Part shown: positions 1 through 29,690 of the stretch, one piece after another | How positions within the stretch are numbered: the stretch's first letter is position 1 | Layout of the letters: every line of letters begins with the position of its first letter | DNA from: Macrostomum lignano | Lineage: Eukaryota | NCBI GenBank assembly: GCA_002269645.1 | Contig: NIVC01004067.1 | Span: 1 to 61,911, forward strand | DNA: 61,911 nucleotides | Direction of reading: 5' to 3' | Translations under genes and position numbers: made by a program | The notes under the pieces: model-generated | What the model saw: the letters and a program-made list of their open reading frames with translations, nothing else | What the model was told of the DNA's origin: nothing | Database searches by the model: none

Positions 1-2350
1 GGGTTGTAGGTAGACGTATATATTTGTTGTATGTTAAGCAGTTTTGCAGCCTGTTGAAATAGTTGTGAGGTGAACTGCGTTCCGTTGTCGGTGGTTAGAG
101 TCTTGGGCGTTCCATACATACAGACAATCTCGTTGTAGAACGCCATAGCTACTGTTTCGGCGGTAATGTTCGGCAGTGGAATTGCTACAGCGAATTTCGA
201 GAAGACGTCGAGAGCGGTGAGGATGTATGTGTAGTTGATCGAGTGTTGTCGTGCGGCAGGTAGTGGTCCCGAAATGTCGAGGGAGACGGTATCCCATGTT
301 GTTGTTTTCGGTACTGTTTGTAGTTGTGGCTTTTGGCGTCGTCCCGTTTTTGCGGCTGCGCATGAGTGGCATTCGTAGCAATATTTGCTGATGTCTTTGG
401 TCATTGTCGGCCAAAAGTAGAATTTTGTCACTCGTTCGATTGTCTTCTTAGCGGAAAGGTGTCCGGCTAATGGCATGTCGTGCAATTCTTGCAAGATAGC
501 GGCTCGAAACAAATATGGCAGATAGATTCGCGGAATATTGTCACAGATCCAATAAAGGATTGATTCTTTGAAGATTAGGTTGTCGCTCTGTTTTTTAAGG
601 AATTTTCTTTCTTGTTTTGTTAATTTGGCGTGCTTGGCGTCGTCGTTGTTTTGTGCGGCTTTGTAGAAGTTGTCGTCTTGCTGTGCCGTAATCAGTTCTT
701 GCATTTTCGGAATCGGATGGATAGCGTTGACTTCGTAAGCTCTGGAGAGTGCGTCTTGCTTTGTTGAGTGGTCCCGGTTTGTAGGCTAGTTGGAAGTTGT
801 AATCCTGAATTTTGAGTGTCATTCGGATGAGGCGGTTGTTAGTCTGTCCTTTCGTCATGACAATGTGTGTCAGCGGTGCATGGTCGGTTCTGAAAATTGT
901 CGGTAATGGAGAACCGTAGATGTAGTAGTGAAACTGTCGTAGTGCGAACAGGATTCCAAGTAATTCTCTTTCTGTGGCGGACCATTTGGTTTCGTTTAGT
1001 CGTAGAGCTCGACTGATGTAGACGATGGGTTTTTCGACTTGTCTTTCCGTTTCTTGCAGTAGAACTGCGCCTAGTCCACTTCCTGAGGCGTCGGTTTCAA
1101 TGATAAAGGGTTTTTGGAAGTTTGGATGTTGCAGTAAGGCGTCGGTCGTCAGTTGCTGTTTGATCTTTTCGAAGCTTTCTTGTTGTTCGTCCTTCCAGTT
1201 TTCTTCTTTCCACTTTGGTTGTTTGAGCAGTTCGTATAGCGGTTTGGCAGTTTTGGCAAAGTTTGGCAGAAACTTTCAGAAATACTGTGCTAGTCCTAGA
1301 AAGGACTGCAATTTTGTTATAGAGGTTGGTCGTGGGAATTTCTTTACTTTCTCCACATTACTTGGATCTGGTGAGATTCCTTTTGCGGATACGTGGTGTC
1401 CCAAGTATCGTACCGAGCTTCGGCAAAACTTGCACTTGGTGGGTTGTAGTTTGAGACTTTGTCGCCTGAGAAGGAATAATGCGAGTTCCATCATTTGAAG
1501 TAGTTGTTCGAAGTCTTCTCCGAAGGCAAGAATATCGTCTACATAGTGGAGTAGATTGGTACATCCAGCAAGCATGTAGGCTGTTAGTCAGCTCATTGTA
1601 GCAGGTGAGTTTGAAATTCCCATAGGACTTCTTTGGTAAGCGAAGACTTCTCCATTGTACGTCTTAAAGGCTGTGTATTGCTTAGACTCTTCTTCTAGTT
1701 CGATTTGCCAAAATCCATGTCGTAGATCAAAGACTGTGAAGAGTGTCGCTGTGTTGAGTCTCGCCATTAGTTCCGAAATCTTGGGTAGGCTTTGTTGATC
1801 TGTCGGGATATACTTGTTTAGGACTCGAAAATCGCAGACAAGTCTTCTCTCGTTTGTGTCCTTCTTCTCGACAAGCAAGCATGGAGAGGAATAGGCTGAA
1901 ACTGTCCTCTTGATGATACCGGCTTTGAGCATTTTCTCGATGATCTCGTCGAAGTGTTGTTGTAGATGTTTTGCAATCGGATACGGTTTGCACTGAATCG
2001 GTTCCTGGTGCGGCAGCAGTGTGATCTTCTGTTTGATGTCTTTGGCTCGTCCAATGTCGTAGTCGTGGTGGCAGAAAACATCGTTGTACTTCCATACAAG
2101 ATCTTTAACTTGGTTCTTTTGTTCTTCGGTGATCGGACTTTGTGACAGATCGATTTGTTCTAGGAATTGTTGCCTTGGCAATGTTGTCGATGTTGATTGA
2201 ATAAGCATCACTGACGCTTGTGTGCTGAGATGTCCGATGCAGGTTCCTGCGTAGATTCTCACTGGGTGCTTGTTAGGATTGACGATTTGTACCGGAATCG
2301 TTTTGTCGGCTGTGATTAGTACCAGTGCTGTGGGGATGAGGATTTCGTTG
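1..2350 (-). pseudogene. pol: Gypsy pol fragment (RT, RNase H, integrase), frameshifted; no protease motif found
   Basis: Translation across frameshifts gives IPVQIVNP..IYAGTCIG (post-protease linker); RT motifs SAYSSPCLLVEKK, RLVCDFRVLN, FDLRHGFWQI, HYVDD; RNase H motifs FIIETDASGSGLGAVL and RTDH; integrase motifs H..LAGH, C..C, SLDISGP, LTTDNGTQF. Confidence 0.92.
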
Positions 2351-4275
2351 TTCTATTAAACTTCAGTTGAAGATCCGACATTTCGTAGGTTTCATCAACA
2401 ATGGCTTGTGATTTCGAGATGTTCTTGATGTCTCCTGTTGGCGAAATTTGATGTAGTAGATCGTTCACGTTGAAATAGTTGGCCGAATTGGTACATGGTC
2501 GTGGAATGGCAGTTCCGACAATGATGTTGTGGACCGTATCCAAAAATCCTCGAATTCGCTTTCCATTGTAGAAGGCTTCGATCCGCGGTTTGTCGTAGCA
2601 AGTTGTTGACGTGTTTGATGACAAGATGTTAAAGTGATGGATCAGAGTACACTTGTAGATTAGCAAGTATCCATAAACCGGAACGGCGAGGAAATCTTCA
2701 ATTCCTGTGATCTTCCTGAAGGTGGTCGTAGGGTTGACGTAGTAGTTCTGTCGCGTGTAGTTTAGACTGGTCTCGTGCATTCGACATGTCAGTTTGACCA
2801 TGGAGCGATGCAGATAGTTCAGTTGCTTGTGCAGTTTGTGTTCCATCGCGGCTAGTTTTGCTGCCAGAAGTCGTGCTGATACTAACGAAGGCTTATCCAG
2901 GTTTCGCTTTTGTCTTTCCAAGGTTTCTTCTCTTGGATAGGTACCATTTATCACCTTCAAAAATACATTCTTGTCCATGTCCTTCAGTGCAATTGGTATT
3001 TCTTGGTCAGATAGGATTAGTTGTTCATTGTTTTCCTTGCATTTCAGTTGTGTATAGCTTGGTTGCTTTGGAAAGGTAAGAGCTAGATCTCCAGAGTCGG
3101 CAAGGAAGGTGTTAGATAGCAGTTTTCTTTGAACAGTATGGTATTTCTGTAGTTTGCAGTCAATTTCAGTTTTGACTTCCCATGCGATGAAGTATTTGCG
3201 AGTTCGACTCGGTTCTTTGTATCGAGAATCCGATCTGTACTCGATTTGGTATCGATAGTCATGGAAATAATTCGGAGCTAGCGGTAAGTTTTGAGCTTCC
3301 TCTTTGTTGTAGTTAGGAGTAGCACAATATCCTGAGCTGTAGTGGCATTGGTCAAGCGGTAGTTGCAAGGATTCCATGTTTTCGAAAGGATTGTGGTAGA
3401 ACAAGACGTTTAAAATCAGATAGCTGTTGTAGACAGTATACAGAGGCCATCGTGCTGCGTGGTAGTGCACATATCTTCCTTCGGCTACGTTGTTGGTGCG
3501 GAATAGTTGCGCTCCGCTTGCTGAAGTGTCGTGGAGCTTCAATTCACCGTCTTTGGAAAACAGGGTTTGGTTCCACTGCATGGAGGCTTTCTTCATGTGA
3601 TACCTTCATCGATGTTTGCCAATATCTGATTCGGTTCCATTGTACCAACCAAATCTTTTCGAGTTCGTCTTTGTCTCTAAAGCACAAAATTCCCATCTGT
3701 CGATGCTTCTTTGTATTCGCTTTGTAGATGTCGATTGTAAGCGGTAGCGGCTTTGTTTGATTCGTCTTAAAATAACTGCATTTGATTTCCGTAGGAATTT
3801 TGTAGATGACAGGCTGGATGGTAGCGTCTGTAGGACAAATCATTGGTACTGAAGTTGAAGTTACCAGTGGTAGCAGGATGAGAAGGATCATCGCAAATAA
3901 CCATTTCATTAGAGGGTGTCTCTTCTTGCTCTTCTTCGGCATCGGCATACTTTCTTCTTGTTCTCCTTTCTTGTTGGAGTGACTTGTGATCGTGGTTTCG
4001 TCCAGTTCCTCGTAGTCGTTTTCTGGTTCTTCAGATGGAGTGATGTCTTGTGGACGGAAGAACCATTTTCTTGAGTGTGGTACTGGTGTTAGAGGTTCCT
4101 GATACGCTGGTGGGTGACACGCTGTAGGGTGTCTTCGAAAGGTACCCATGAATTCTGGTCGAGTCGGCGTAGAAGAAGTCTGTTGATGCAGTTCTCCGAC
4201 ATTCATCGTAACGTAGGTGTTATCTTCTGTTTGAGTGAATCGATTGCATGTGAAGTGGAACGGTTGGGTGTTCAC
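2316..4275 (-). pseudogene. env: env-like class III fusion glycoprotein (herpesvirus gB/chuvirus G type), frameshifted near 3590 and C-terminally truncated
   Basis: Hydrophobic signal-like segment WLFAMILLILLPLVTSTS; Cys-rich ectodomain; furin-type RQKR; gB-like segments AAKLAAMEHKLHKQLNYLHRSMVKLTC, NPTTTFRKITGIEDFLAVPVYGYLLIYKC and CYDKPRI...GFLD. No C-terminal TM before the stop. Confidence 0.75.
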
Positions 4276-4343
4276 AGCTTTGTTTGTCCGTTTCCGTTTT
4301 CAGCATTAAGAATTGTAGCAAGATTCTCGTATTCCGGTTCGGA

Positions 4344-5430
4344 TTATTGTACCGTTGGAGATGATAACATGTAGTCGGTATCTTCAAAGAGAGTATCACG
4401 TACGTTGATACTGAAATCTGGTGTTAATTCTTCTACCGAAAATTTTGGTTCGATAGCCTGTTGTTCACTGGCCTGTGGTTCAATGGCCTGTGTGTACTGT
4501 CTATGCACCTGCGTTGGCTGCCTTGGTGGAGCGGGTCGGCGTGGGTTGTAAGGTACCATCGTATTGTTAGGGCGGTTATCCCGCCATGGTGGTGGTCGGT
4601 TATTCATCCGATTTCTGTTTGGTGGATATTGTTGGTTTGGATAGCGTGACCAGTTGTCTCGTCTGTTTCCACCGGAATAATTTCGTGGTTGATTCTGGCG
4701 CAAGTTTTGGCGGCAATCTCTGTAGTAATGACCTACTCTTCCACAATTGTGACAAGTAACGTTTCGAGGGTTGCTTTGCTGCGGGCGCATTGCAATTGCT
4801 GCGGCTTGGTGTTGTTGCATAAGTTTGCTTAATTGTTCTGCTAATTGTGCGGTGTCACTAGTGCGGTTAGCTAGAAGAGGTGCGCTTGCCTCCCACTGCA
4901 TTCCACAGCGGAGTAACTGTTCTTCTGTCTCAATTGTTTCTCGCAGGAGTCTATCTCGCAAGGCAGGTTGAGCGTTGTTAATGACATTAAGAATTAGACT
5001 TTGCTTTTGATCTGCAAGCCGTTGTCTTTCTCTAGCAGCTGCTTCTGCTGGTCCAAGGGTTGAGCTGCTGCTGCTGGTTGCGGTTGCTGTTGATGCAAGG
5101 CTTTGATGATTTGTCGAATATCATCGACAAAGGTGAGGAATGATTCCGTGGGTGTCATTTTCCGGTTATGTAATTTATGTAACAACACCGATCGATTGGT
5201 TCCGCATCGTGCGAACTGTGTTCGAAGTTGGGTAATCATGGCATGGTAATCTCGTTGTGTAACTGCATCTAATTTTCCATAAATTTCTCGGGCTGTGCCT
5301 TGTAGCAATGGAGGGAGGAGTAGCGCCTTTTCTGGATTTTGTAATCCATATTCCCTTGATACCAAATCAAAGTGGTCAATGAAGGTCGCAAAATCTTTGT
5401 CCATAGTGTAAGATACGACTGTCTCTTCTT
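4344..5430 (-). pseudogene. gag: Gypsy gag (capsid region + one CCHC zinc knuckle), frameshifted near 4990
   Basis: FIDHFDLVSREYGL..EKALLLPPLLQGTAREIY capsid pattern; CHNCGRVGHYYRDC knuckle. Confidence 0.85.
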
Positions 5431-5569
5431 TGTCTCTCTTCTTGTCTATGACCTCTCTTCTCTCTCTCTCTCTACCTCTCTCTTTATCGATTTTCCTCCC
5501 CAGCGTTATCGCCTTTAAATATTTTGACGGCAATTCGGGCAAATAAACTATACTCGAATATGAGTACTT

Positions 5570-5603
5570 CCCTGACGAAGAGTAACCTTACTCGAAATAT
5601 CGG
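5570..5603 (+). ncRNA. Minimal type I hammerhead ribozyme motif (Penelope-type)
   Basis: CC-CTGACGA(5572-5578)-A-GAGTA/ACCT/TACTC stem II-GAAA-TA-TC^GG. Complete catalytic core, palindromic ATAT helix III, 2-bp helix I. Predicted cleavage after 5601. Confidence 0.7.
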
Positions 5604-5689
5604 TAACATTAACTATTTCGAAGTAAATTGACTTTTATCAGTCCTTTCACCGTGTCAGCGCCTGGGATTGGATGTGCGTTCCTCTCTCT

Positions 5690-6039
<350 letters not shown>

Positions 6040-6610
6040 TTCGCCTCATTCCAATCAACTTGCAGAAGCTGAATGCTTTGAAATCTTAAAATAATACGAG
6101 TAGTTCTTTCGAATGAGTCAATGCTCTTGCACCGCTTCAACTGTAATCAGGTATTGATTTTCTGTTTTTCTTGACTTAAACTACTCGTCTTTGCATTTTT
6201 GCTCTCTGTCTCAGACCAAGGGACTTAGCTGAGGCGGCAGTTTGCATTCGAATTGCACATTTACTGCCAGTAGCTCCGCGGCCCAAAGCTCGTTGCAATT
6301 AATGTACAGTTGGTTTAGACAGAAGCCTCTTACATGTAAGTCGTTTCCCTTTATAAATTTACAAGGAAATTCTTTCCTCACAAAGCATTACTAATAAATA
6401 ATACAATTTATTAACTTCTGGCGATTTGTGATTGCTTCCCTTTAATGCTCAATGGTACAGTGCTTGTTTTAGGGATTTTTAATACGCCATCATAACTGCA
6501 CTCTTCCCCTCAAGCAGCTTCTCAATTCATGACAATTTGGCACATTGTATTATTCTCGAGCCTACTAGATATGCATACTGAATAGAATACACTTGGACTG
6601 GCAATTAGCG

Positions 6611-9600
6611 CTGCGATTCAGTAACAGCAGTGATGCTTTTAAATCTGCGATTCAATAACAGCAGTGATGCTTTTAAATCTGCGATTCAGTAACAGCAGTG
6701 ATGCTTTTAAATCTGCGATTCAGTAACAGCAGTGATGCTTTTAAATCTGCGATTCAGTAACAGCAGTGATGCTTTTAAATCTGCGATTCAGTAACAGCAG
6801 TGATGCTTTTAAATCTGCGATTCAGTAACAGCAGTGATGCTTTTAAATCTGCGATTCAATAACAGCAGTGATGCTTTTAAATCTGCGATTCAATAACAGC
6901 AGTGATGCTTTTAAATCTGCGATTCAGTAACAGCAGTGATGCTTTTAAATCTGCGATTCAATAACAGCAGTGATGCTTTTAAATCTGCGATTCAGTAACA
7001 GCAGTGATGCTTTTAAATCTGCGATTCAATAACAGCAGTGATGCTTTTAAATCTGCGATTCAGTAACAGCAGTGATGCTTTTAAATCTGCGATTCAGTAA
7101 CAGCAGTGATGCTTTTAAATCTGCGATTCAATAACAGCAGTGATGCTTTTAAATCTGCGATTCAGTAACAGCAGTGATGCTTTTAAATCTGCGATTCAAT
7201 AACAGCAGTGATGCTTTTAAATCTGCGATTCAGTAACAGCAGTGATGCTTTTAAATCTGCGATTCAGTAACAGCAGTGATGCTTTTAAATCTGCGATTCA
7301 ATAACAGCAGTGATGCTTTTAAATCTGCGATTCAATAACAGCAGTGATGCTTTTAAATCTGCGATTCAGTAACAGCAGTGATGCTTTTAAATCTGCGATT
7401 CAATAACAGCAGTGATGCTTTTAAATCTGCGATTCAATAACACAGTGATGCTTTTAAATCTGCGATTCAGTAACAGCAGTGATGCTTTTAAATCTGCGAT
7501 TCAATAACAGCAGTGATGCTTTTAAATCTGCGATTCAATAACAGCAGTGATGCTTTTAAATCTGCGATTCAGTAACAGCAGTGATGCTTTTAAATCTGCG
7601 ATTCAGTAACAGCAGTGATGCTTTTAAATCTGCGATTCAATAACAGCAGTGATGCTTTTAAATCTGCGATTCAATAACAGCAGTGATGCTTTTAAATCTG
7701 CGATTCAGTAACAGCAGTGATGCTTTTAAATCTGCGATTCAATAACAGCAGTGATGCTTTTAAATCTGCGATTCAATAACACCAGTGATGCTTTTAAATC
7801 TGCGATTCAGTAACAGCAGTGATGCTTTTAAATCTGCGATTCAATAACAGCAGTGATGCTTTTAAATCTGCGATTCAATAACAGCAGTGATGCTTTTAAA
7901 TCTGCGATTCAATAACAGCAGTGATGCTTTTAAATCTGCGATTCAGTAACAGCAGTGATGCTTTTAAATCTGCGATTCAGTAACAGCAGTGATGCTTTTA
8001 AATCTGCGATTCAATAACAGCAGTGATGCTTTTAAATCTGCGATTCAATAACAGCAGTGATGCTTTTAAATCTGCGATTCAGTAACAGCAGTGATGCTTT
8101 TAAATCTGCGATTCAGTAACAGCAGTGATGCTTTTAAATCTGCGATTCAGTAACAGCAGTGATGCTTTTAAATCTGCGATTCAGTAACAGCAGTGATGCT
8201 TTTAAATCTGCGATTCAGTAACAGCAGTGATGCTTTTAAATCTGCGATTCAATAACAGCAGTGATGCTTTTAAATCTGCGATTCAATAACAGCAGTGATG
8301 CTTTTAAATCTGCGATTCAGTAACAGCAGTGATGCTTTTAAATCTGCGATTCAATAACAGCAGTGATGCTTTTAAATCTGCGATTCAGTAACAGCAGTGA
8401 TGCTTTTAAATCTGCGATTCAGTAACAGCAGTGATGCTTTTAAATCTGCGATTCAATAACAGCAGTGATGCTTTTAAATCTGCGATTCAGTAACAGCAGT
8501 GATGCTTTTAAATCTGCGATTCAGTAACAGCAGTGATGCTTTTAAATCTGCGATTCAATAACAGCAGTGATGCTTTTAAATCTGCGATTCAGTAACAGCA
8601 GTGATGCTTTTAAATCTGCGATTCAGTAACAGCAGTGATGCTTTTAAATCTGCGATTGAGTAACAGCAGTGATGCTTTTAAATCTGCGATTCAGTAACAG
8701 CAGTGATGCTTTTAAATCTGCGATTCAATAACAGCAGTGATGCTTTTAAATCTGCGATTCAGTAACAGCAGTGATGCTTTTAAATCTGCGATTCAGTAAC
8801 AGCAGTGATGCTTTTAAATCTGCGATTCAGTAACACAGTGATGCTTTTAAATCTGCGATTCAGTAACAGCAGTGATGCTTTTAAATCTGCGATTCAATAA
8901 CAGCAGTGATGCTTTTAAATCTGCGATTCAGTAACAGCAGTGATGCTTTTAAATCTGCGATTCAGTAACAGCAGTGATGCTTTTAAATCTGCGATTCAGT
9001 AACAGCAGTGATGCTTTTAAATCAGCGATTCAATAACAGCAGTGATGCTTTTAAATCTGCGATTCAGTAACAGCAGTGATGCTTTTAAATCTGCGATTCA
9101 ATAACAGCAGTGATGCTTTTAAATCTGCGATTCAGTAACAGCAGTGATGCTTTTAAATCTGCGATTCAATAACAGCAGTGATGCTTTTAAATCTGCGATT
9201 CAGTAACAGCAGTGATGCTTTTAAATCTGCGATTCAATAACACCAGTGATGCTTTTAAATCTGCGATTCAATAACAGCAGTGATGCTTTTAAATCTGCGA
9301 TTCAGTAACAGCAGTGATGCTTTTAAATCTGCGATTCAATAACAGCAGTGATGCTTTTAAATCTGCGATTCAGTAACAGCAGTGATGCTTTTAAATCTGC
9401 GATTCAGTAACAGCAGTGATGCTTTTAAATCTGCGATTCAATAACAGCAGTGATGCTTTTAAATCTGCGATTCAGTAACAGCAGTGATGCTTTTAAATCT
9501 GCGATTCAGTAACAGCAGTGATGCTTTTAAATCTGCGATTCAATAACAGCAGTGATGCTTTTAAATCTGCGATTCAGTAACAGCAGTGATGCTTTTAAAT

Positions 9601-10222
9601 CTGCGATTCAATAACAGCAGTGATGCTTTTAAATCTGCGATTCAATAACACCAGTGATGCTTTTAAATCTGCGATTCAGTAACAGCAGTGATGCTTTTAA
9701 ATCTGCGATTCAATAACAGCAGTGATGCTTTTAAATCTGCGATTCAGTAACAGCAGTGATGCTTTTAAATCTGCGATTCAGTAACAGCAGTGATGCTTTT
9801 AAATCTGCGATTCAGTAACAGCAGTGATGCTTTTAAATCTGCGATTCAGTAACAGCAGTGATGCTTTTAAATCAGCGATTCAATAACAGCAGTGATGCTT
9901 TTAAATCTGCGATTCAGTAACAGCAGTGATGCTTTTAAATCTGCGATTCAATAACAGCAGTGATGCTTTTAAATCTGCGATTCAGTAACAGCAGTGATGC
10001 TTTTAAATCTGCGATTCAGTAACAGCAGTGATGCTTTTAAATCTGCGATTGAGTAACAGCAGTGATGCTTTTAAATCTGCGATTGAGTAACAGCAGTGAT
10101 GCTTTTAAATCTGCGATTCAGTAACAGCAGTGATGCTTTTAAATCTGCGATTCAGTAACAGCAGTGATGCTTTTAAATCTGCGATTCAGTAACAGCAGTG
10201 ATGCTTTTAAATCTGCGATTCA
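6611..10222. repeat. 34-bp tandem satellite, about 106 copies (CTGCGATTCA[G/A]TAACAGCAGTGATGCTTTTAAAT)
   Basis: Head-to-tail units with no spacers; one dimorphic G/A position and a few recurring rare variants. Confidence 0.98.
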
Positions 10223-10320
10223 ATTAAAGGCGCCACGAATGCAACGGGATTGATTTGGTTGCTAGGGACGCTAAGAATAATAGCACGAGAGACAATTCTG
10301 GTTGCTAGGGACGCCACGAT

Positions 10321-10762
10321 TGTTGTGAGCCCCGTCCTCCGGAGCAACGCCTACAGCTTTAACCTGTCGGGAAGCTGCGACCCCCAGGTCCCCAGTCAGA
10401 GCTCCCGTCCCGCGCCCTAGGGAGAAGCAGAAAAAGGACAGTAACTCGCGAACACGAACTTACACACCGTAGCCGATGCAGTTCGCCGTGCACTTTTTAT
10501 GGTAGATCGACGAGTCGTTAATAGCCAACGGAGGCGGACCAACGCGCGCAAGGGAGGAGTCTGCCCTCCAGACAGCGAATATATATTTTTCATTGGTCCT
10601 ACGCGTACATGAATATAACTTAAGAACAAATGTACGGTACAGCAGGGGAGGTGGGGCGGGGTGGCGTGATCGGCGTACGCATTGATTATTGATTGGAGGG
10701 GTGGGGCAGACTGGAGGGTTGGGGCGGGGCAGGAGGGCGAGAAAGGGCACGATTGCACAACA
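10321..10762 (-). repeat. 3' LTR of Gypsy element
   Basis: Matches 16918-17359 with 3 substitutions found by eye; TG...CA termini. Confidence 0.97.
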
Positions 10763-10775
10763 TCCTCCCCTCCTT
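10763..10775 (-). promoter_or_regulatory. Polypurine tract (AAGGAGGGGAGGA)
   Basis: Purine run directly abutting the 3' LTR on the minus strand. Confidence 0.9.
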
Positions 10776-11996
10776 AAAAAAGGCGAGTCACAAGAACAAA
10801 GACTGAATGGAGACAAAGACAGGATTCGATGAGTTGGACAGATACGACGGCGCAATGAGGATAAACGCGAATAATTTATAGCACGACAACGACATTTATG
10901 ACGAACAGTCTTAGCGTTAGCAACATTCGAATAATGAAACACGAGTTTGACGCATATGAAAAATGTACGAGTGTTGAGAAAACGCATTTTGGACGATAAA
11001 TGTTAGAGAAATAAACGCGAAAAATAAAAAAAGCAAGAACTTCAGTGTGACAACCGCAACGAAACGAAAAAATTGCACCACTGTCTACCGATGTTACTTT
11101 AACTTCGAAGAATTTCTTGCGACATGAACGTAAAGCAACAGTTTAATAATGTCAAATTGTCAATTGAAAAAAAACATGAACCAAAAAGCATGATGAAAAA
11201 TACACTAAAATGAAGTAAATCAGGCCGAATGGGCTGCGCCGGACTCCTGCTCGACTCCAACACGACGGACACCCGACGATTCGCGAGCCGACTCGACGAT
11301 TGGCACTCTGGCACCCGAAGTCGCTTGCTGACGCCGAAAACCGGTGATGTCGCTGAGGCCCTGGTCATCGCTGTCTGCCACCGTGGCTGCTGAACCTCCT
11401 TCGTTGGGCTGCACATGCCTCGCCAGCAGAAGTCCTTGTACCGCGACTCTCGGTCGTACTGGAGATGTCCTGAGCGTTGTCACTGGCGCCGCTGATGTCT
11501 GCTGGAGCTTGCCTGACATCACCGCGATCCCGTCGACTTGTGCCAACCAGCCTCCGGCCGACTTGCTGACGCCGCATCCGCATCTCCCGCGCCGGTTCAC
11601 TGTTCTCACGCTGGACGGATCCGTGGGTGCAGTCAGCTGCGCAGTGCCGCCTCCTGCCGGTACTTGATGCTCGACTCCTTGCCCTGGGTGTCCTTTGAGC
11701 CTGGCTTTCCCCACAACTCCCGAGGAACGAGCCGAGAAACCCCAACATGGGAACAGGGAGTGCAGCTTCCCGAGCAGGTGCCACCCACCGCTAAGCTCTC
11801 CAGCAAAGGCAAACCGATCTAGCCCGACTACTTCTGAACTAAACTAATACTAACTATAAAAAGCGTACTGTAATTGAACTGCTTGTTTACTGTAAGCATG
11901 TACTTTATTAGCAAATGTTGTTTTTTCGTTGTTTTTGTGCTGTTTTGTATTTTTTTGGATTTTAACAATTTTTATTGATAGTTTGAATGCTTGGAA

Positions 11997-14900
11997 CTAG
12001 TACAGTACTGGGTCGCCGTAGCGAGCAGGCGGATTGTTTCTCCTAGGCCGAAGCCTGCGTGGCGAAGCCGGAGATGCTGCAGCGTGAACCGGTTGGTCCT
12101 GCGGCGCTTGGATGTCTTGATGCACCGCCGCTGGCACATAGACAAACTGTGAGTCATCTCCATCCGAGTCGGGCTCCGACTCTTGCGGCTCTTCGCTCAC
12201 AACAACAACAGCACGTTGCCCCTTCCGTTTTCTGCGGCTTTGCTTCGGCGGTCTTGAAGCCTGCAGCTCAACGGGACGTTGAGGCACTTTGCGAAGGTTG
12301 TTATAGTGCACCACCCTGCTTTTCCTACTGTTCTGATGGAGAATTCTGAAGTTAATGTCTGACAGCTTTTCTACCACCTCGGCTGGGCCCTTCCAATAAT
12401 TGTGAAATTTTGCCGCTTCGTTCGGCTGCAGGGCCGGCGAATATTCGAGTACCGAATCTCCTACTTCTATCGTCGGACCTCTCTAACCCTTGAGTCGTAT
12501 ATGATTTTCTGTTTTCGCTGGTAATGTTGCAGATTCTGCCTTACATGTGAATGTGCCTCCGCGAGCCTGTGCCCCAGAGACAACAGGTACTCCGGTGCAT
12601 CAGCCGGTACTGCTTCCGGCAGGTTCCCAATATCGACTGGAAGGCGCATTTCTTTTGCGTACAACATGTAGTACGGAGTGTACCCAGTGCCACGATGGAC
12701 ACTACTGCGGTAGGCGAGAAGTGATGGAGCGATCAGCTCCTCCCAATCACTCTCAGCCTCACTCTGCCGGCATTTTATCATATTTTTTAGCGTTTTGTTA
12801 AAGCTTTCTGCCTGGCCATCGGCCATGGGATGATAGGCCGTTGTTCGGCATTTTTTAACAGCCATCAGCTGACACAGCTGCTTTACCAGCAATGACTCAA
12901 AGTTGGTGCCTTTGTCCGTCACAAGGAACTCGGGGCAACCAAACTGCGCTATCCAATTGTCGAAGATGGCCTTTGCCACCGTGCTCGCACGCTGATTTGA
13001 AAGTGCCACCGCAACTGGCCACTTAGTGAACGAGTCCTGGATGGTCAAAATGAATCTGGACCCATTCCTAGATCGCGGCAATGGCCCGACGATGTCGCAC
13101 ATTATTCGCTGAAACGGAGCTTCTGACAGAATCGGGTGCAGCGGAGCTCGATTGGCCTGGCCTGGTTTTGACCGGGCACAATGCACACAGCTCTTGCAGT
13201 ACTCCTCGATCTTTCTTGAAATTCCAGGCCACCAAAATCTAGCCTTCACCTTCTCCTGGGTCTTTTTTATCCCTAGGTGACCACCTGTGACTCCGTCATG
13301 CAACTCACTGAAGACCTTCTGAAACAAGCTCGGCGGCAAGATAATTTTCGGAACCTCAGACCCAGGACCTTGAAAAACCAGAACCTGCGCATCAAGCCTG
13401 ATCAGCTGACGCTGAGACCACAGACACCTCTCCTCCCAGCACATCACCTGCGGTGGAGTTGACGCGTCGACATGATCTGTCAAGAAATTATTGATGATCT
13501 TCAGCTTTGGCTCTGCTTCTTGAGCTGACTGTATATCTTCCTTCTGTAGCACACTCCGAAATATCGCATTGACACCATTGCTGCGCTGAGCCGGTGCGCA
13601 ACTAGGACAAGTCTCATGCCCTGTGGGCCTTCGGTATTTCCGAGACAAAGAGTCTGCGTTGCCGTGATGTTTCCCGGCCCGGTGTTCTATAACAAAGTCA
13701 TAGTTCTGCAGTGTTTCCAGCCATCGAGCACATTGACCCTCAACATCACGGATGCTGGCGAGCCACTGCAGGGCTTTGTGATCAGATCTCACAGTGAATT
13801 TTTTCCCGAGTAGATAGTACCGGTACTTTTTGATAAAGTGCACAATTGCCAACAGCTCGAAACGGGTGGTGCAGTAGTTTTTCTCGCTTGCCTGGATCAT
13901 TCGAGATCCATAGGCTATCACCTTCTCAGACCCGTCCGACTGGCGCTGTGACAGCACCGCACCAAGCCCAATTCGAGAGCTGGCATCCGTGTCAAGAATA
14001 AACTCACCAGCGTTTGGCGAGAAGTCTGGAAAAGCCATAACGCTTGGCGAACACAGAGCCGCTTTCAGACTGTTGAACGACTGCTCTTGGGCTGGGCCCC
14101 ATTTGAACTCGGCATCGTTCGCTACAAGTCTGTAGAGCGGAGCGGCAATCTCGGAAAAATTTGGAATGAAAGCTTTGTAGTAGACGCACAGTCCGAGAAA
14201 CGATTGGACTTTGGCCACACTGCAAGGCCTGGGCCAGTCCTGGATTTCGGCACACTTTTCTGGGTTCGTCGCTATTTCATCCTTGGAGATCACGTGACCT
14301 AAGAAGCTAATCTTTTCGGCCAGAAAGACACATTTTGCTGGCTTCAGCTTGATGTTAGCTCTTCTAAGACATTGAAACACATGCTCAAGGCGTTCGAAGT
14401 GCTGCTGCACAGTCGTGGAGAAGACAACTATGTCGTCGAAGTAGACGAGGCATTCCTTCCAGTTGACTTCTGACAGTGCCATGGACATGAGTCTCGTAAA
14501 GGTTGACGGGGCGTTTTTGAGCCCGAAACTCATGCACTTCCACGCAAACTGTCCCCGATTCGGCACCACGAAAGCGGTCTTTAACTGGTCTTTCGACTCC
14601 AGTGGGCACTGATGGTACCCGGATGCCAGGTCCATCGTGGAAAAGATGCAGTTTCCCCCGAGCGCATCAAGAGTCTCATCCATTCTGGGCGGAGGCAGAG
14701 GATCAGGCACGGTCACGCTGTTCAGGCGCCTGTAATCCAGACACATTCTGAGACTGCCATCCGACTTTCTAACCGGAACCACTGGGCTCGACCAGGGTGA
14801 CTGACAGGGATAGATGCGGCCTTCAGCCAGCAGTTGATCAACCTGTTTATCAACCTCACTTCTCCAGTGCGGCGGGATTCTGCGCAAGGGTTCAGTCACG

Positions 14901-15890
14901 GGCTTCGCGTTACCCGTGTCGATTTCGTGTGCCATCAGATTCGTGAGCCCGAGTTCAGAGCTGTCTTTGGCAAAGACGTCACGATTTTTGGCAACCAGGG
15001 AAACAAACTCTCTTGCCTCTGCGTCTGATAGGCCGCAGGCACCCCACTCTTTGACTTCGCTGAGGGGACTCCACAGCTCTCCTTCTGACTGGACGGCATT
15101 CAGCTGCAGCTCCGCTGGCTGCTGCGCAGAGACCGGCGAAAACCAGCCAACTCGAGTGCCCCGCCTCATCGACAAACTGCACTCCGACGTGTTCAGAATC
15201 CTGACAGACAACTGACCCTCTTGATCAGGCAACTGCACCGATCTGGCCAGAAAATGATCACCTGCTGCCCGACGCTCGGACTCCACCATTCCAGGAAACT
15301 GAAATCCCCTCACCCCGCGTCTCTGAAGGCGGACTGGGACCAGCTTCTCCTCACCGGCATCCATCCGGACAGCCTGGCGCAGCACGATGCGGCACACAAG
15401 AGGTCTGTCAGCACACAAACTGAAAGGAAAGACACACGATTCTGTCTGCAGGCAGTGTCTAGCGAAATCAATTATCATGCAATGTCTAATGAAAAAATCG
15501 GTTCCTAAAATGCATGGCTGTGAAATTTCATCGACAACTAAAAATTCGTGCTCGAATTTCGTCTCACCAATCGAAAAAGTCAGATTAATTCGGCCTAAAA
15601 TTTGAATAGGCTCACCACTCGCTGTGTAAATTGAAAAATCAGTACTACAATTCTGAATTTTGTTCTTAATTTTGCGGATTCTAAGAAACGACTACTAAGT
15701 AATGACACTGTGGACCCGCTGTCCAGCAAACAAGCAACCAAGGGCCCAGATTCAAACTTTGCGTCAATATAACCCAGTCCAGTTCCACCCAGCACACTCT
15801 GGATCTGGGTTGTGGGCCCTGGCGCTTCTTCAATCACTGCAGACGGGGCCCGGGACGCTGGCCTGGCCGGGCCCCCATCCCGTTTCCCTG
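11997..15890 (-). CDS. pol: Gypsy Pol (protease, RT, RNase H, integrase with GPY/F tail); two small frameshifts near 15677 and 12482
   Basis: LLDSGSTVS protease continues in another frame as ..CILGTDFF; RT YFDD; RNase H ILDTDAS; integrase HHCC, DIVGP, TDKGTNF, AESFN; WKGPAEVVEKLSDINFRI lies after a further frameshift. Confidence 0.93.
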
Positions 15891-16793
15891 ACTCTGAGTA
15901 GCCTGCTGACTCTGGCACCTGGAACGAGTGTGGCCCTGCTGGCCGCAGGCAAGGCAAACTACTCGATTCCTACAGTCCGCCGTTGAGTGCCCCATCTGAA
16001 GACACCTCCTACAGGTTCTGCCCGCCTGAGGCGCGGCTGCCGGCTGCTGCGGATTCGGCTGCACCGCCGAGGCCGACGCCCCTCCTTGCTTCAGCTGCGC
16101 GATCTCTGCCTTCAAGCTGTCGATCTCCGCAGCCATGCGAGCTGTCTGACTGTCCGCTGCAGCAGCTGCCGCCTGACTGTTCACCACGTAAACTGATCGC
16201 TTTCCCTCCAGCAGCTTCATCGATGCGAGAGTCTGGCGCACTCGCTGGATCGCGGCCTGCAGCGTGTCAGGGTCTTGCAGCAAGACATTCTCAAGCACCC
16301 TGTCCGGAACTCGAATCCCCTTTAAGAATCGGTCTTTTGCTAGCTCATCCCTTTGCTCCCCTGGCAGAGCCGGATATGCCTTACGCATGAGCTCCCTGAG
16401 AGCGTCAGCGTAATCCTCTAGTGCTTCCCCCTCTCTCTGACTCCTGTTTTGAAATTCTGTCTTGTAGTCCTGGGGTGTGCGATTCTGACTGAAGCGAGCC
16501 TCCAGCTGCTCCACAAACTCTACGTAGTCCAAGTCATCATCCAGCTCGAGATTGGCCACTGCTTTAAAAGCCGTGCCAAAGTCCAACAGACTCAGCAAAT
16601 TCTGCTTCCGCTGATCCTCAGGGATCTGAGCAGCCTCGCAGTACGTGGAGAACTGTTGCAACCACAAAGCAAAATCTTGAGTCGGCACATACTTATTAGG
16701 ACGTGGAACGCGCTGGCCCACGTTTAACTGCTCCTGGATTCTCGCTGTCAAAGCACCGATAAGATCGTCTAAATTGGCCATGATCGCTTGCAC
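15834..16793 (-). CDS. gag: Gypsy Gag, intact ORF (319 aa from a non-ATG start; first ATG at 16781), two CCHC knuckles
   Basis: Capsid pattern FALWLQQFSTYCEAA; CRRCLQMGHSTADC and CLACGQQGHTRSRC. Confidence 0.93.
   Translation of the reverse strand: MQAIMANLDDLIGALTARIQEQLNVGQRVPRPNKYVPTQDFALWLQQFSTYCEAAQIPEDQRKQNLLSLLDFGTAFKAVANLELDDDLDYVEFVEQLEARFSQNRTPQDYKTEFQNRSQREGEALEDYADALRELMRKAYPALPGEQRDELAKDRFLKGIRVPDRVLENVLLQDPDTLQAAIQRVRQTLASMKLLEGKRSVYVVNSQAAAAAADSQTARMAAEIDSLKAEIAQLKQGGASASAVQPNPQQPAAAPQAGRTCRRCLQMGHSTADCRNRVVCLACGQQGHTRSRCQSQQATQSQGNGMGARPGQRPGPRLQ
15845..15888 (-). promoter_or_regulatory. Programmed -1 ribosomal frameshift signal (G GGA AAC + 9-bp GC stem)
   Basis: The heptamer at 15888-15882 is in the gag frame and its -1 frame is the protease frame. 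GGGGCCCGG/CCGGGCCCC hairpin starts 6 nt downstream. Confidence 0.8.
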
Positions 16794-16896
16794 AAAACTA
16801 ATTCTAACGCAAAACTAACTCCAACGCACTAAATCACAAATTCAATAATGCACTACCCCAGACAACAGACAGAAATCTAACGGGAACCCTAACTGG

Positions 16897-16915
16897 AATC
16901 CTGGTCACGGCACCA
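16897..16915 (-). promoter_or_regulatory. Primer-binding site, tRNA-His type (TGGTGCCGTGACCAGGATT)
   Basis: Begins with TGG 2 nt inside the 5' LTR; complementary to a tRNA-His-like 3' end (...GTCACGGCACCA). Confidence 0.8.
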
Positions 16916-16917
16916 GT

Positions 16918-17359
16918 TGTTGTGAGCCCCGTCCTCCAGAGCAACGCCTACAGCTTTAACCTGTCGGGAAGCTGCGACCCCCAGGTCCCCAGTCAGAGCT
17001 CCCGTCCCGCGCCCTAGGGAGAAGCAGAAAAAGGACAGTAACTCGCGAACACGAACTTACACACCGTAGCCGATGCAGTTCGCCGTGCACTTTTTATGGT
17101 AGATCGACGATTCGTTAATAGCCAACGGAGGCGGACCAACGCGCGCAAGGGAGGAGTCTGCCCTCCAGACAGCGACTATATATTTTTCATTGGTCCTACG
17201 CGTACATGAATATAACTTAAGAACAAATGTACGGTACAGCAGGGGAGGTGGGGCGGGGTGGCGTGATCGGCGTACGCATTGATTATTGATTGGAGGGGTG
17301 GGGCAGACTGGAGGGTTGGGGCGGGGCAGGAGGGCGAGAAAGGGCACGATTGCACAACA
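16918..17359 (-). repeat. 5' LTR of Gypsy element
   Basis: Second LTR copy, adjacent to the PBS. Confidence 0.97.
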
Positions 17360-18479: not shown

Positions 18480-19413
18480 ATGCATTCTCTGCTAATCATC
18501 TGCGCTGTCATGACAACTGCTGTGGCCGCAGACTCCGGCTGGGAGATCCACAGAGGCGACCTCGCCGAGTACCGGGTGCTGGCGGTGAAGCTGGCCATCA
18601 GCGACATTCACTGTACAATGGTTGCTGAGAACGCGGATGCCGTCCGCTTTGACGCGGCCTCGGGCTCCTGCTCGCTGCTGGCCTGCGATCGGGGAGCGAT
18701 GGACGCCTGCAGGAAGTGCCGCCACGCCAGCGACTCCAGCCTGCCTCAGCTGTGGGTGAGTGAGCTGGGCTTTGCTTTGCGGCTTCTGCACTTTTTACAA
18801 CCGCTTCAATATGCGTGCACGAAATCGCCCATTGCAGATGAGGAAGCCGGTGAAGTGCTGGACGACCTTCCAGCACAGAGTCGACGGCTCCGTCAGCTTC
18901 AACCAGAACTGGGCGGACTACGCGAGCGGATTCGGTCAGGGCGAGAGTCTCAACTACTGGATGGGACTGGAGCAGCTCCACCAGCTCACCGCCACTGGAG
19001 TGTGTAGAGTTCGCTGGGAGTTCAGCGACTGGAACGGCACCTGGTACTGGGCTGAGAATGCTCCGTTCTCTGTTGGCCCAACGAGCGACAAGTACAGGTG
19101 TTCGATGGGACCTCTGGACGCGAGCAGGTCGAGTGTCGGACAGCTTCCTGATACGAACTACTCTCCAAAAAACTGGCAGTTCAGCACTCCAGACTTCGAC
19201 AATGACAACTGGAGTGGAGACAGCTGCGCACAACACCGGTCCGCTGGGTGGTGGTACGGCGTGTGCGCATTCATGGAGCCGAACGGAGTCTACCAGGAGT
19301 ATCCCAATATTAACACACAGGGAATCTATTACTTTCTTCATGCATCTGGATCTGCTAGCGCACTTGTTTTGTCGTACTCGATGAAGAAGTTTGAGTGCCT
19401 GATTTTCAACTGA
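18480..19413 (+). CDS. Secreted PAN/apple-like + fibrinogen C-terminal domain (FReD) protein; exons 18480-18755 and 18838-19413; about 283 aa
   Basis: Signal peptide MHSLLIICAVMTTAVAA; phase-0 intron TGG|GTGAGT...TTGCAG|ATG (82 nt); FReD motifs FQHRVDGSVSFNQNWADYASGFG, YWMGLEQLH, FSTPDFDNDN, GWWY..C. Confidence 0.85.
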
Positions 19414-21745: not shown

Positions 21746-22312
21746 AGACTCTGCTTGGGGCATGATCGGGAACTCTGGGCTCAATCTGGAGTATTTCTCA
21801 GCAGGGGATCCTTTGTGGCTGTGAGCGAGGCTGACTTGCGACTTTGATTACTAAGAGTAGTATGAGGCGAACATGTACTGTCTCTAGTTTAGATTGCTCA
21901 GGGCGAAGGGACGCGTCAGCATGGGGTTGCAACCTTCCTACTGCCATTCTGTGCCAAGACTCGCTAATCCCTCTACTGCACAAACACGCGGCCCCGCAGC
22001 ACGCACTCACAGGCGGGCTTTGCACGGGGAGAGGCCATTAGCTTACCCAACTTCCTTATGTTTTGCCACCCCGGGAGAAAGGCTTAGCAAGCCATGAGTG
22101 AAATGATGGTGAAAGAGTGAATAATGATGAGGTTAGTTAATAGTTAATAATTAGGCCCTTAGGCAAGTAATCAGGCAGTTAGGCGGCTTCACTATTGAGT
22201 AAAAATACAGCAAAAGGTACGGTATTACAACTGGCTCAGCTCTCTAATCAGACAATGGAAAAATAGGCAAACTCCGGATAAGCAAAGGCAATTAGAGCAC
22301 AAATCAGTAATA

Positions 22313-23284
22313 CTTCGGGTGTGTCATAAGTAATGTCACTGCAGGCCTCTGTCTAAAATATGTAGGCACATGGACTTGTGGGTAGCGTAGCTGCAAAGTA
22401 TACTTAGTGAAGCAATACCAGTGCATTTGAGACGTGCATAGGTTGTTTATGGCCCAAGCTATCGCAAGAATACGCCAAGCAGATTTAGCAAGTGCAACGC
22501 GATGAAAAATCGTCTATGCAGCGAACAAAAATCACCATGAATCTCGACAAGACGCCTGCATCAAGCAGATCCGCAAGGTGTTCAGCAGGCGGGGCTTGAA
22601 TGACATCCTAAACTGCCTGGTTGCTGAGGATGAAAGCTGGCTCCACCTGGATGGCAAGGGCAGCAAGGCAGACAATCGCTGCTGGCTGGGAGCTGGGGAC
22701 TCCAGGGCGACTGTGACCAGGAAGTCCATCTTGGACAAGAAGACCATGCTGCTGGTAGCCTTCACGCCAAACAAACGAGTCTCCATCTGCACAACTCCAC
22801 CGAACACCAAAGTCGATGGCCAGTATTTTATCGACTTTATACGGCACACTGGAGACCTCTGGCGCAATCTCCGGTCAAATCCATGTCACCTGGACGAGGT
22901 TCTGTGGCAGATGGACACCGCACGGCCGCACACCTGTAAGGCTTTTTCGAATTTTCTGCTTGCACGGCGAGTGAATATGCTCTGACAGTCCCAACAGCTC
23001 AGACTTCAACTTTTGCAAGAGATTCCTGTTCAAATGGCTGAAGGCTGATTTTTCCAAGAAGAGTTTCGCAAACCATGAAGAGGTCAAACAGGCCGCGTTG
23101 CACTGGTTACGGCAGTTGGAGGAAAAACACCTGCAGGCTGAGGTGGACAAGCTGTATGAGCACTGCCAGAGGGTGATTGATATTGGGGGACTCTATGAAT
23201 TGTTGAGTGATACAGTTTTTTTCATCTGCGATTGCAAGTTCGTCTGTTTTCACATCAGTGACATTACTTATGACACACCCGAAG
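22313..23284 (+). mobile_element. Internally deleted mariner/Tc1-family DNA transposon (972 bp)
   Basis: Perfect 29-bp TIRs CTTCGGGTGTGTCATAAGTAATGTCACTG (22313-22341 and 23256-23284), TA on both sides; transposase remnant with DESW and QMDTARPH motifs. Confidence 0.93.
22533..23210 (+). pseudogene. Mariner transposase catalytic-domain remnant; N-terminal DNA-binding region missing; stop and frameshift near 22985-23020
   Basis: LVAEDESWLH, KKTMLLVAF, WQMDTARPHT, degraded SPDxN region, FLFKWLK...HEEVKQAALHWL. Confidence 0.85.
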
Positions 23285-25869
23285 TACGAAGTAGGAACTT
23301 ACCGGCAGCTGCACAGAGAGAGAGAGAGGCGGAGTGACCGAGGGCGGCTGTAGGCTGCAGTCAGGCAGATGGTGAAGCGACGAGGCGCTGGTGTAGATCA
23401 GGCGAAGCTGATGATGCTGGGCGGTATCAGACCGCTGGCCAATAGGCGAGCTCACTCGGGGAGTTGAAGATAACTTGGCGGTAACAGACCGCGGACCGGC
23501 AGGGATTCGTCTTATAGACGAATGGGTCAGAACTCAGTCTGATGGCAAGTCTAAAGAAAGACTAGGAGCCCGAAGGTGGGCAAAAGTTGAGTCTTCTCAT
23601 GCCGAAAACCGCCTCCTTTTATAGCCTTCCCAGCCGCCGCTCCAAGGTCGTTTCCATGGCTCCCTCTCTCTGATTGGCTGCCGGCCGAATGACGTCAGAA
23701 TGAGTCATGATGAGAAACATGAGACCGGCATAGCAACATGAGAAAAAGGGAAATTGCGCAATCCGGAGGTGGGGTGGGGGGAGAATTGGCGCAGCGGGTG
23801 GTCGCGAAAGTGTTGCGCAAGCAAACATTGAGAACAATAGGGCTGGGGTCGAGAACAAAGGAATTGGAAATCGGGGATAATTGGGGAGAATCGAGGACAA
23901 TGGAAAAGTAAACATTGGAGAAAAGGTGATAATTAGGTGCGAAAACGAGAACAAAAGAAAGAGAAAATCGGAGAAAATGTGATAATTGGTGGGGATAAAG
24001 AGAACAAAAGAATCGAAAACGAGAACAATAGAAGCGGAGGTGGGGTGGGTGTCGCATGAGAAATTTGGGGAGGAGAACAATGGCATGAGAAAAGGTTGCG
24101 CAAGAGAGGGGGATGAGTCATCGATGAGTCATCGAGGGGAAGAAGGGGTCACACGACTTGCGTCACCGTTTGGGAGTTTGGGAAGGGATGGGAGATCGGT
24201 GAGCACACAAAATACTGTAAGTAAACGCAGGGAAAGGGGGGGACAGCGCAGGAAAATAGTGCAGAGAGACAAAAAGAGGGGGGAATAGGGAGAGTACAAG
24301 AAGAATAGGGTGGGGCGCAGGGGAGATAAGGTAGAGGGGAGGGTACAGAGAGGGACAGGGAGCTCCGGAAAGGCAGGTGTGGCGGCAGGGGAGACGGAAC
24401 CAAGGCAGCAGGGGGGTGCAGCAGAGCGGGAGTCTCCAGGCCTGGTCAGAGACCTGGCCGAGTCTCGACAGCTCTGTGCAGGGGGGTACGCGGGATAGGA
24501 GGCACCTTCGAAAAAGTTCCCATGCCCTATCCCGCGACCAGAGCGTGGTTACATCACCTCTCTATAATTCTCTCATCTCATATCTCATTTCATCTCAACT
24601 GTCCCTCTATCTCTCATCTCCTCTTGTCACACGTATCTTCTCATCTAATCTCTACTCTATTTCCCTCCTTTCCTTTCACACCTGGCCGGCAGCCAAAAGC
24701 TAGAATATTTCTCTGTCCCTCAAGGTAAAAAAAGTTTTCCGGCCACCCGCATGGCGTAGCCTCATTTCGGCCTGAGCTTTAGCTAGCCGTTGAATAATGG
24801 CCGAATTACGAGCGCGCGTGACAACTCCGCAACATGTTGAGGCTTCCACTCCAAAAAACAGTTTCAGGGTGAATGTCATTTCCCACACTTACACATGTTA
24901 TATATTAGCTTTCACCTTTGATTCTTTTTTGTCATGCTTTTAGCTTCGGAACTTTATTTCATGTTTAGTCGTTTAATAGATATAAAATCGACTAGTTTTG
25001 ATGATGAGCAGTGCTTTACTCTGGCTGCTGTCGGTGGTTCCTCTTGCTATTATTCGCTGCGCGCTTCCGCCGGTCGGGGCGTGCGCGCTTGTGCCACAGT
25101 GTGCAAAAAATGCACAGGTGCGTACAATGGCTATGCGTACTTTCCCCGGCTGTTTTAGTTACCAAGCGCACGCAGTCTCGTCCGTAGTAAATGAAAGTGG
25201 CTGGATATGTGTACATTAACGAACGACGCCGAGGAAGGAAGGCAAAGGCACGGCACGGGCGAGGAAGACGAACTTGCAAACGCGAGACAGGGTAGCTGGG
25301 CCAGAGCAGCCCCGCGCGGCCTAAAAAACCCCCACGGGCCGGGGGGGGGACTCAAGCACCCACCCCTCCCCCCGCCAGACAGAGCACGCACACCGGAGAG
25401 CCCACACAGGCCCGGGGCGGCCCCTCCCCGACGTGTTCGCTAACTCAGAGTAGCAACGCTACTCACCACTTAAGCAATACAAGCGGTAGGGCGCAACAGC
25501 CGCAACACCCAACACCAGTCGAAAGCTGTCGTTCTTTCTGTCAACGCCTGTTTCACTGCGCTTTTCTCTTTTCTTTGCTCTGCAATATTCATAAATCTCG
25601 TACTGCAGCAGAGACGAAGCTAACTGTACAATTATTGCAGAAAAATCTATCCACATGACTGCACACAATGTACTCATACTGTACTCTGGAGGCAAAATTT
25701 GGGCAGTAATAGTTGTAGACAATGTACTTCCGTTTAAGTCTCGTCTACCGCTGTAGTTTTCGTTTTTAAAATAGAATCTACGAGCTTTGGCCTAGCGACT
25801 AGGGAGCAGCTTTCTACAAGCACTGTAAATCTGGTGCAGTATTTTGCAATCAATTCAATCTGCTTTAGC

Positions 25870-28800: not shown

Positions 28801-29690
28801 ACAACCGACGGGATCATCAGCGGCGGTTCCCTCTAGAAGCCATCAAGCAGAAGTACTGTCCTGAGCACCCCGACAGACCAGTGCAGATCGTGCCGTGGCT
28901 GTTCAGCAATGACTCGTACGAGCTGCTCGCTCTGATCAGCATCGCGTCACAGGAGGACTATGAAAACTACACAGAAACGTCGCCTCTGGTCCAGACGGAT
29001 CTGCAGAAATAGAGACTGGCTCTGGAGCGAGTAGAGCAGCTCGGGAAACAGACTGAGAACGATTATTATAATGCCATCATGGAAACCCTGAAACTCGCAA
29101 AAAGTGCAATGGATGGATTAACTGCAAAACTGGATGGCTCCGAAATGGACAAGAAACTTGATTACTTCCCATACGGCTTCCGGTATATGAATGTAAAAAA
29201 GGATGAGACAAAAAAGTTGATTTGCGGATTACAGAAACAAAGCCACGAAAATCGAAGAACGGAGATTAACAAGAAACTTTCAAATTTGCTCAAGTTGAAG
29301 GCATCCGCCACTGATGAAGCGAATCAGAGAGTAAATGCGCTCGTTGATTTGCTGAGCACTCGAGAATCAAAAGCGTTTCAGTTCCAGCAGCCATTTGCTT
29401 GGCTTGTGATCTGGCAGGAGTTGAGAAACAAAGCGGAGCACTCGAGCGCACAGAAGCCCATGAAGACTTTGATTCCAGAGTTATTGGAGGCCTGGAACTG
29501 CGACCCAGATTGTGCTGGAAGCGTCGCGCACATGGCTGCGGAGTTCGCTGAGGAGACACGACTGATATTCGAGGCCGAGACTGAGGCGCTTCGAGCAGCC
29601 ACTGGTAAGACCGGAGTACCAGTAGAAGATTTGAACTCAGCCCAGTCGAGACCCACCAAGAAGTTTTTGGCTTTGCATCTTTCTGACTGA
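25870..29690 (+). CDS. RRM-RRM-TPR-like protein, paralogue A; exons 25870-26062, 26157-26266, 26375-26785, 27132-29690; in-frame TAG at 29010-29012
   Basis: All three introns are GT-AG, phase-consistent and shared with paralogue B. RNP2 CLCVKGL and RNP1 RGLGFVEF; second RRM VYLWNLP...IGFIRF; helical repeats such as YEHLGLLYLRLQDFKAAKENFQKL. Confidence 0.8.

Follow-up and report, generated by a model that had tools for sequence, protein, structure and literature searches.

A decayed Ty3/gypsy copy in Macrostomum lignano with a predicted gB-type envelope region between gag and pol

When the envelope (env) gene of a long terminal repeat (LTR) retroelement lies between gag and pol, does this reflect the native arrangement of a lineage or the rearrangement of a single copy? 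The question is raised by a stretch of 61,911 nucleotides from Macrostomum lignano (GenBank assembly GCA_002269645.1, contig NIVC01004067.1, positions 1 to 61,911 of the forward strand; the window, in what follows). Here, examination of stop-to-stop frames and Pfam matches on the minus strand revealed, from 5437 down to 1, gag, a glycoprotein gene, and sequences encoding reverse transcriptase (RT), RNase H (RH), and integrase (IN). It is very probable that this element is a decayed Ty3/gypsy (Metaviridae) copy, the native order of which is gag, env (encoding a class III fusogen of the herpesvirus glycoprotein B, or gB, type), protease (PR), RT, RH, and IN. The lineage name 'errantivirus' fits in an operational sense only.

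Gene order in the copy and in its relatives

The order of the pol domains, with IN last according to Pfam positions, is that of Ty3/gypsy elements, as is the presence upstream of a gag with a capsid region and a nucleocapsid knuckle. In pol, RVT_1 was matched in two pieces (E 9e-13 and 1e-9), together with RT_RNaseH_2 (E 9e-35), Integrase_H2C2 (E 9e-19), and rve (E 4e-15). In gag, a zf-CCHC zinc knuckle was recognized at 4757-4707 (E 9e-5), and the N-terminal part gave weak matches to DUF1759 and Retrotran_gag_2 (E ~0.015). Those RT relatives that bear a name are Pol proteins labeled 'K02A2.6-like' and '412-like'. PR would be expected ahead of RT, yet no aspartic protease was found in the eight element frames scanned with Pfam. 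Because this domain falls in a block deleted relative to the related proteins P0001 and P0002, considered below, its loss counts against the copy being an intact member and not against its descent from the family. Strand skews are even across positions 1-5000, consistent with a single element, and neither a second env nor a second copy of the element was found within the window, where the env profile matched only 3933-2232 and no self-match was seen.

To relate this order to that of other elements, a 429-residue piece of env was used as query against 1.84 billion cluster representatives, yielding 42 proteins at E <=0.001; the env relatives considered here comprise 43 proteins (P0001-P0043), of which 23 were scanned with Pfam. 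The only match among longer proteins in the single-sequence search was P0001, the M. lignano UniRef entry 'Retrovirus-related polyprotein' (A0A0M4HFM6), whose cluster holds 10 member sequences. In one chain, P0001 carries the C-terminal half of Env, a transmembrane (TM) helix (residues 206-224), PR (residues 322-411), RT, RH, and IN. The profile search returned, among longer proteins, only P0002, in which Env and a TM helix are likewise followed by PR ahead of RT. The upstream part of the order is provided by P0003, where gag, knuckle, spacer, signal, and Env form one chain collinear with window positions 5425-3156. The whole succession of gag, env, PR, RT, RH, and IN was seen in P0004 (2852 residues) and P0036, and all but the capsid part, beginning with the knuckle, in P0008.

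Across the 43 env relatives, gag or a knuckle precedes env in 19 and PR follows it in 11, with both being true of 8, while a full RT-RH-IN follows in 4. In the same order scan, RT or IN upstream of env was called in none of the 43. In all, 22 proteins were informative as to order and all 22 agree, with P0015 and P0033 being ambiguous. As a control, the scan did call the canonical RT-RH-IN-ENV order in P0062. This gypsy-like polyprotein of 2692 residues is a single predicted chain, and its Env matches the same gB-type profile. The initial annotation had proposed collecting gene order with env and RT as separate queries; performed on proteins, this approach upheld the native placement. When the RT-RH region of P0001 was itself used to look for long relatives, 22 proteins were retrieved, most of them concatenated gene models from pseudoscorpions, and none added a close gag-env-pol relative.

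Comparison with P0001 also served to define what the copy has lost. Residues 2-126 of P0001, in the C-terminal half of Env, match window positions 2723-2349 (69% identical), and residues 484-1018, covering the linker, RT, and RH, match 2349-745 (77% identical over 535 residues); identity in IN is 67%. Left unmatched by the window are residues 127-483 of P0001 (357 residues) and residues 2457-2780 of P0002 (324 residues). As the unmatched stretch is contiguous in both proteins and its flanks are joined at 2349, a single block of ~1.0-1.1 kb appears from these alignments to have been lost at ~2349, removing the Env C-terminus, the TM helix, the cytoplasmic tail, PR, and the beginning of the linker that joins PR to RT. 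The copy thus shares with P0001 the order of env followed by pol; unlike the copy, P0001 retains the TM helix, tail, and PR. Given the 18-23% amino-acid divergence in RT-RH, P0001 represents a related subfamily and not the same insertion.

In a 16-row tree of RT-RH sequences, built with no curated clade references and weak at its deep nodes, the copy is sister to P0001 (100/99), with P0004 branching next (100/99), while the gag-env-pol pair of P0008 and P0036 joins this group without support. The branch leading to the copy (0.14) is longer than that leading to P0001 (0.05). Moreover, identity to the same relatives is comparable across gag, env, and pol, such that nothing points to an env block of foreign origin.

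These comparisons also refine earlier readings of the locus. That gag, a glycoprotein, and RT-RH-IN follow one another on one strand was borne out by Pfam, but the glycoprotein is not the single ORF (4275-2316) previously described, occupying instead two frames (4299-3544 and 3605-2316) that meet at a frame change near 3580-3593. The limit of the element had been set at 4961, yet tblastn with P0003 and P0002 places the start of gag at ~5437-5425, beyond that point. Nor does gag natively end at 4344: the stop scan revealed an in-frame TAA at 4346-4344, but homology to P0003 continues in the same frame down to 4305. Finally, of the proposal that a native gag-env-pol element was later hit by one deletion, the native order is borne out by P0001-P0004 together with the broader group of relatives, but a single deletion does not account for the damage, which amounts to three in-frame stops (4346, 1590, and 1278), four frame changes (near 5070, 4300, 3590, and 750), and one large deletion.

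The envelope glycoprotein and the state of the copy

The features of the element are listed in Table 1. The spacer that leads from Gag to Env is predicted to be cytosolic. The hydrophobic segment that follows is the only one of its kind in the five window frames tested by the Kyte-Doolittle approach, and has counterparts in P0002 (residues 2098-2116) and P0003 (residues 477-495).

Table 1. Coordinates of the gag-env-pol element and of its upstream flank in the window.
Feature	Positions	Strand	Basis
Region expected to hold the 5' LTR and primer-binding site	5438-6610	.	TRF; (TCTG)n microsatellite at 5685-6039
gag, N-terminal (capsid) part	5093-5437	-	tblastn, P0003 residues 16-126 at 5425-5093, 68%
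gag, C-terminal part with CCHC knuckle	4305-5054	-	P0003 residues 138-384 at 5054-4305
Hydrophilic spacer leading from Gag to the Env signal	3904-4299	-	P0003 residues 387-587 at 4299-3580; follows frame change near 4300
Hydrophobic segment opening Env (internal signal or signal-anchor)	3847-3903	-	Kyte-Doolittle 19-residue mean 2.17
Predicted gB-type (class III) fusion glycoprotein ectodomain	2349-3846	-	Profile, AlphaFold2, Foldseek
Deletion junction, out of frame	2343-2352	-	P0001/P0002 flanks meet at 2349
pol: remaining linker, RT (~1869-1390), RH (~1197-799)	745-2349	-	Pfam; 77% to P0001
IN (H2C2 zinc finger and catalytic core)	1-755	-	Pfam; 67% to P0001

Assignment of the glycoprotein relied on profile and structure comparisons. 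With Pfam, frame 3605-2319 gave a weak match to Monjiviricetes_fusion (PF24664; E 2e-4), under the curated cut-off, and frame 4299-3547 gave no match. When used as a single sequence against PDB sequences, the env piece returned no matches. By contrast, when a profile built from the same piece and 25 relatives shorter than ~920 residues was used, all 48 listed matches (E up to 10) were herpesvirus gB, the best at E 9e-13. An AlphaFold2 model of moderate quality (mean pLDDT 69.5; pTM 0.37) was likewise matched by Foldseek to gB in all 42 of the matches listed (ranks 1-50, with gaps), with a best E of 1.3e-7; the TM-scores are just ~0.3, such that the likeness to gB does not fix the domain arrangement. 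A furin-type RQKR motif is present at 2915-2904, followed by a long central helix at ~2876-2736, spanning 47 residues in the model. Judged by these similarities, Env is homologous to herpesvirus gB and is predicted to be a class III fusogen. The C-terminal part of Env and its membrane anchor are missing from the copy, with the anchor being kept in P0001 and P0002. In P0004, residues ~1000-1190 correspond to a mucin-like insert of ~190 residues, rich in Thr, Ser, and Pro, just ahead of the env furin site.

The remaining parts of the element are similarly eroded. No in-frame gag ATG was detected by scanning 5587-5405, where the start is expected from relatives. The beginning of gag is also aligned by P0002 (residues 1617-1646 at 5437-5348, tblastn). 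The gene is split by a frame change somewhere in 5093-5054. In pol, in-frame TGA codons are found at 1590-1588 and 1278-1276, and IN begins after a frame change at ~755-745, to be truncated by the left edge of the window, beyond which the 3' end of the element lies. At the other end, neither a CA...TGG junction nor a primer-binding site (PBS) was recognized in 5438-6610, and no second copy of 1-6620 that could represent an LTR partner exists within the window. With its stops, frame changes, deletion, and lack of any recognized LTR, the copy is taken to be dead, being presumably old and inactive.

Expression of intact members and alternative explanations

The native order raises the question of how a single reading order can provide for the synthesis and packaging of Gag, a lumenal fusogen, and Pol. 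In intact members, Gag-Env-Pol would most likely be translated as a single long polyprotein, the Gag portion of which would remain in the cytosol. The internal signal sequence would then thread the Env ectodomain into the endoplasmic reticulum, where glycosylation and furin cleavage could occur, until a second hydrophobic segment, the Env anchor, stopped transfer and left PR-RT-IN hanging on the Env tail within the cytosol. The parts would be cut free by signal peptidase, by furin, and by the protease that the element encodes. In this manner, co-translation could bring all three products together at a single budding membrane, giving rise to enveloped particles that, by analogy with Drosophila errantiviruses, might pass from cell to cell, for instance into the germline. 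For gB-type elements, particle formation and germline infection are stated as unknown in the available part of a study by Chary and Hayashi (PMC13524379), in which no discussion of such a polyprotein topology was found. The copy itself would be incapable of this route, as it has no Env anchor, no protease, and no continuous frame. The combined proposal, namely that a second, uncatalogued Macrostomum gag-env-pol subfamily exists and that its members employ a single polyprotein of flavivirus-like topology, with Pol being packaged through a tether to the Env tail instead of by Gag-Pol frameshifting, is offered tentatively, its chances being put at somewhat below even. As M. lignano is transgenically tractable, according to the available text of PMC12801592, native processing could be observed there were the tethered-Pol topology true.

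Several observations weigh against the native order or its expression as one chain. In P0015 and P0033, Pfam placed a protease match ahead of env, and 21 of the 43 env relatives yield no information on order. The gene model of P0002 is clearly chimeric and carries unrelated domains upstream, an RNase H match among them. The status of these elements as single ORFs rests on database protein predictions, as the relatives were compared as proteins. Finally, both hydrophobic segments flanking the ectodomain were detected by a crude hydropathy scan in just 4 of the 13 env relatives considered (P0002, P0019, P0020, and P0034), with one segment being seen in 7 and none in 2.

Of the alternatives, the one that fares best retains the native order but not a polyprotein yielding its products in a 1:1:1 ratio. 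Excess Gag would instead be made by means of a stop, a frameshift, or splicing where Gag meets Env, with Env-Pol arising by read-through or from spliced RNA. The Gag output of retroelements is, as a rule, far above that of Pol, and a stop and a frame change do lie within ~45 bases of each other at the Gag-Env boundary of the copy. However, there is no overlap between the frames of gag and env, the env frame opening at 4299, past the gag stop; the gag frame remains homologous to P0003 beyond that stop; and gag or a knuckle is joined to env in one predicted chain in 19 of the 43 relatives. Such boundary regulation is accordingly considered rather unlikely, if still a serious competitor of the single polyprotein.

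Much less probable is that, in an element of native order, the gap of 1 kb or the frame changes reflect errors of assembly or sequencing, the true locus being more intact. The four small frame changes could indeed be indel errors of long reads. Yet three separate in-frame stop codons are also present, and the branch of the copy in the RT-RH tree exceeds that of P0001. Moreover, a neighboring env-less gypsy element keeps a gag frame of 326 residues, a pol frame of 1074 residues, and LTRs that are 98.7% identical, which speaks against poor local assembly and shows the local sequence not to be generally error-ridden.

Least probable of all, to the point of being almost negligible, is the other possibility entertained in the initial annotation, namely that recombination in this one copy put an env block, taken from a canonical gag-pol-env element, in the place of the protease. 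PR is indeed absent exactly at the site of env, and env and pol meet out of frame. Yet in P0001 and P0002 RT is preceded by Env, a TM helix, and PR, the same relative matches the window to either side of the gap, what is missing forms a single contiguous block of these proteins, gag is joined collinearly to env in P0003, RT or IN was called ahead of env in none of the env relatives, and the published search, in the available part of its supplementary file 7, recorded for M. lignano POL-ENV 0 and 0 against ENV-POL 93 and 51 hits (PMC13524379).

Known elements and the surroundings of the copy

The premise that env always lies 3' of pol in env-bearing LTR elements, from which the initial annotation proceeded, is outdated. 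In the available part of PMC13524379, the only account of gag-env-pol retrotransposons that a literature search returned, errantiviruses of Nematoda, Bryozoa, and Platyhelminthes are described as carrying only gB-type ENV in a GAG-ENV-POL arrangement. Such elements fall in several clades and are not monophyletic in the POL tree. Listed among them is Platyhelminthes_Rhabditophora_Mlig_errantivirus_2 from M. lignano, with 16 intact copies, LTRs of 863 nt, and a reference locus at NIVC01000995.1:376053-388099, as well as two Prostheceraeus and six Schmidtea elements; no sequence row for Mlig_errantivirus_2 was found in the part of supplementary file 3 available. As far as can be judged from these data, the copy shares with Mlig_errantivirus_2 its host, the Ty3/gypsy order of pol, and a predicted gB-type class III env between gag and pol. 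Unlike that element, the copy is decayed, lacking the uninterrupted ORFs by which an intact element is defined in PMC13524379 and so failing the intactness filter of that study. The PBS motif of Mlig_errantivirus_2 gave 14 matches (<=2 mismatches) against 13.9 expected, none of them upstream of gag. The layout is thus already known, including for M. lignano, and the copy is one more decayed example.

Sacco et al. (2022; doi 10.1099/jgv.0.001739) are credited in the same available text for nematode retroviruses with flipped ENV and POL (PMC13524379). In such non-canonical endogenous retroviruses, the two genes are inverted in order as in the copy, with the hosts being nematodes and not a flatworm. 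The nematode elements of Sacco and colleagues reportedly consist of one continuous gag-env-pro-pol ORF. In Drosophila errantiviruses (gypsy and ZAM) and in vertebrate retroviruses, env lies 3' of pol and is expressed from spliced RNA. These, like the copy's lineage, are LTR retroelements with an env and with PR, RT, RH, and IN in pol; in Drosophila errantiviruses Env is of the baculovirus-F type, as opposed to the predicted gB type of the copy. The layout genuinely departs from the gag-pol-env order of textbooks. The value of the copy lies in adding a further example and in drawing attention to a flatworm that is amenable to work on the native expression and processing of such elements.

A catalogue of 137 M. 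lignano LTR families makes no mention of an envelope or glycoprotein in its main text, and its supplements may name this family (PMC12801592). The Macpiwi1 paper (PMC4604429) was considered as the origin of P0001 and dropped, as its available text contains no mention of LTR, polyprotein, or GenBank.

Upstream of the copy, a very homogeneous 34-base tandem array (6611-10222; 106 copies, 97% matches, TRF) separates two retroelements. The second of these, at 10311-17359 on the minus strand, is the nearly intact env-less gypsy element considered above, lying between this satellite and a 23-base tandem array. Its LTRs (10311-10762 and 16907-17359) were compared over 453 nt, and it contains gag at 16814-15834, pol at 15691-12467, and an IN tail at 12482-11997.

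Elsewhere in the window, two long paralogous genes, apparently with few introns, form an inverted pair at 26306-29690 (plus strand) and 38200-34418 (minus strand), with arms that are 73-93% alike and weak TPR matches. Both end with an RNxxxH motif, which we take to resemble a HEPN nuclease site. Each is preceded by an RRM-like ORF, one matching RRM_1 (E 4.5e-4) and the other giving no match. The pair possibly belongs to an expanded family of the innate-immunity type. An RT fragment at 44863-45918 (plus strand; RVT_1, E 3e-9) is presumably Penelope-like, and a 976-base element at 22311-23286 has perfect terminal inverted repeats of 31 bases and a transposase-like ORF with no Pfam match. On the plus strand, an open frame of 823 residues at 53371-55842 encodes five Ig domains of KY-like type, along with the final part of a transglutaminase-like core, and an ORF at 18760-19413 encodes a fibrinogen-C domain.

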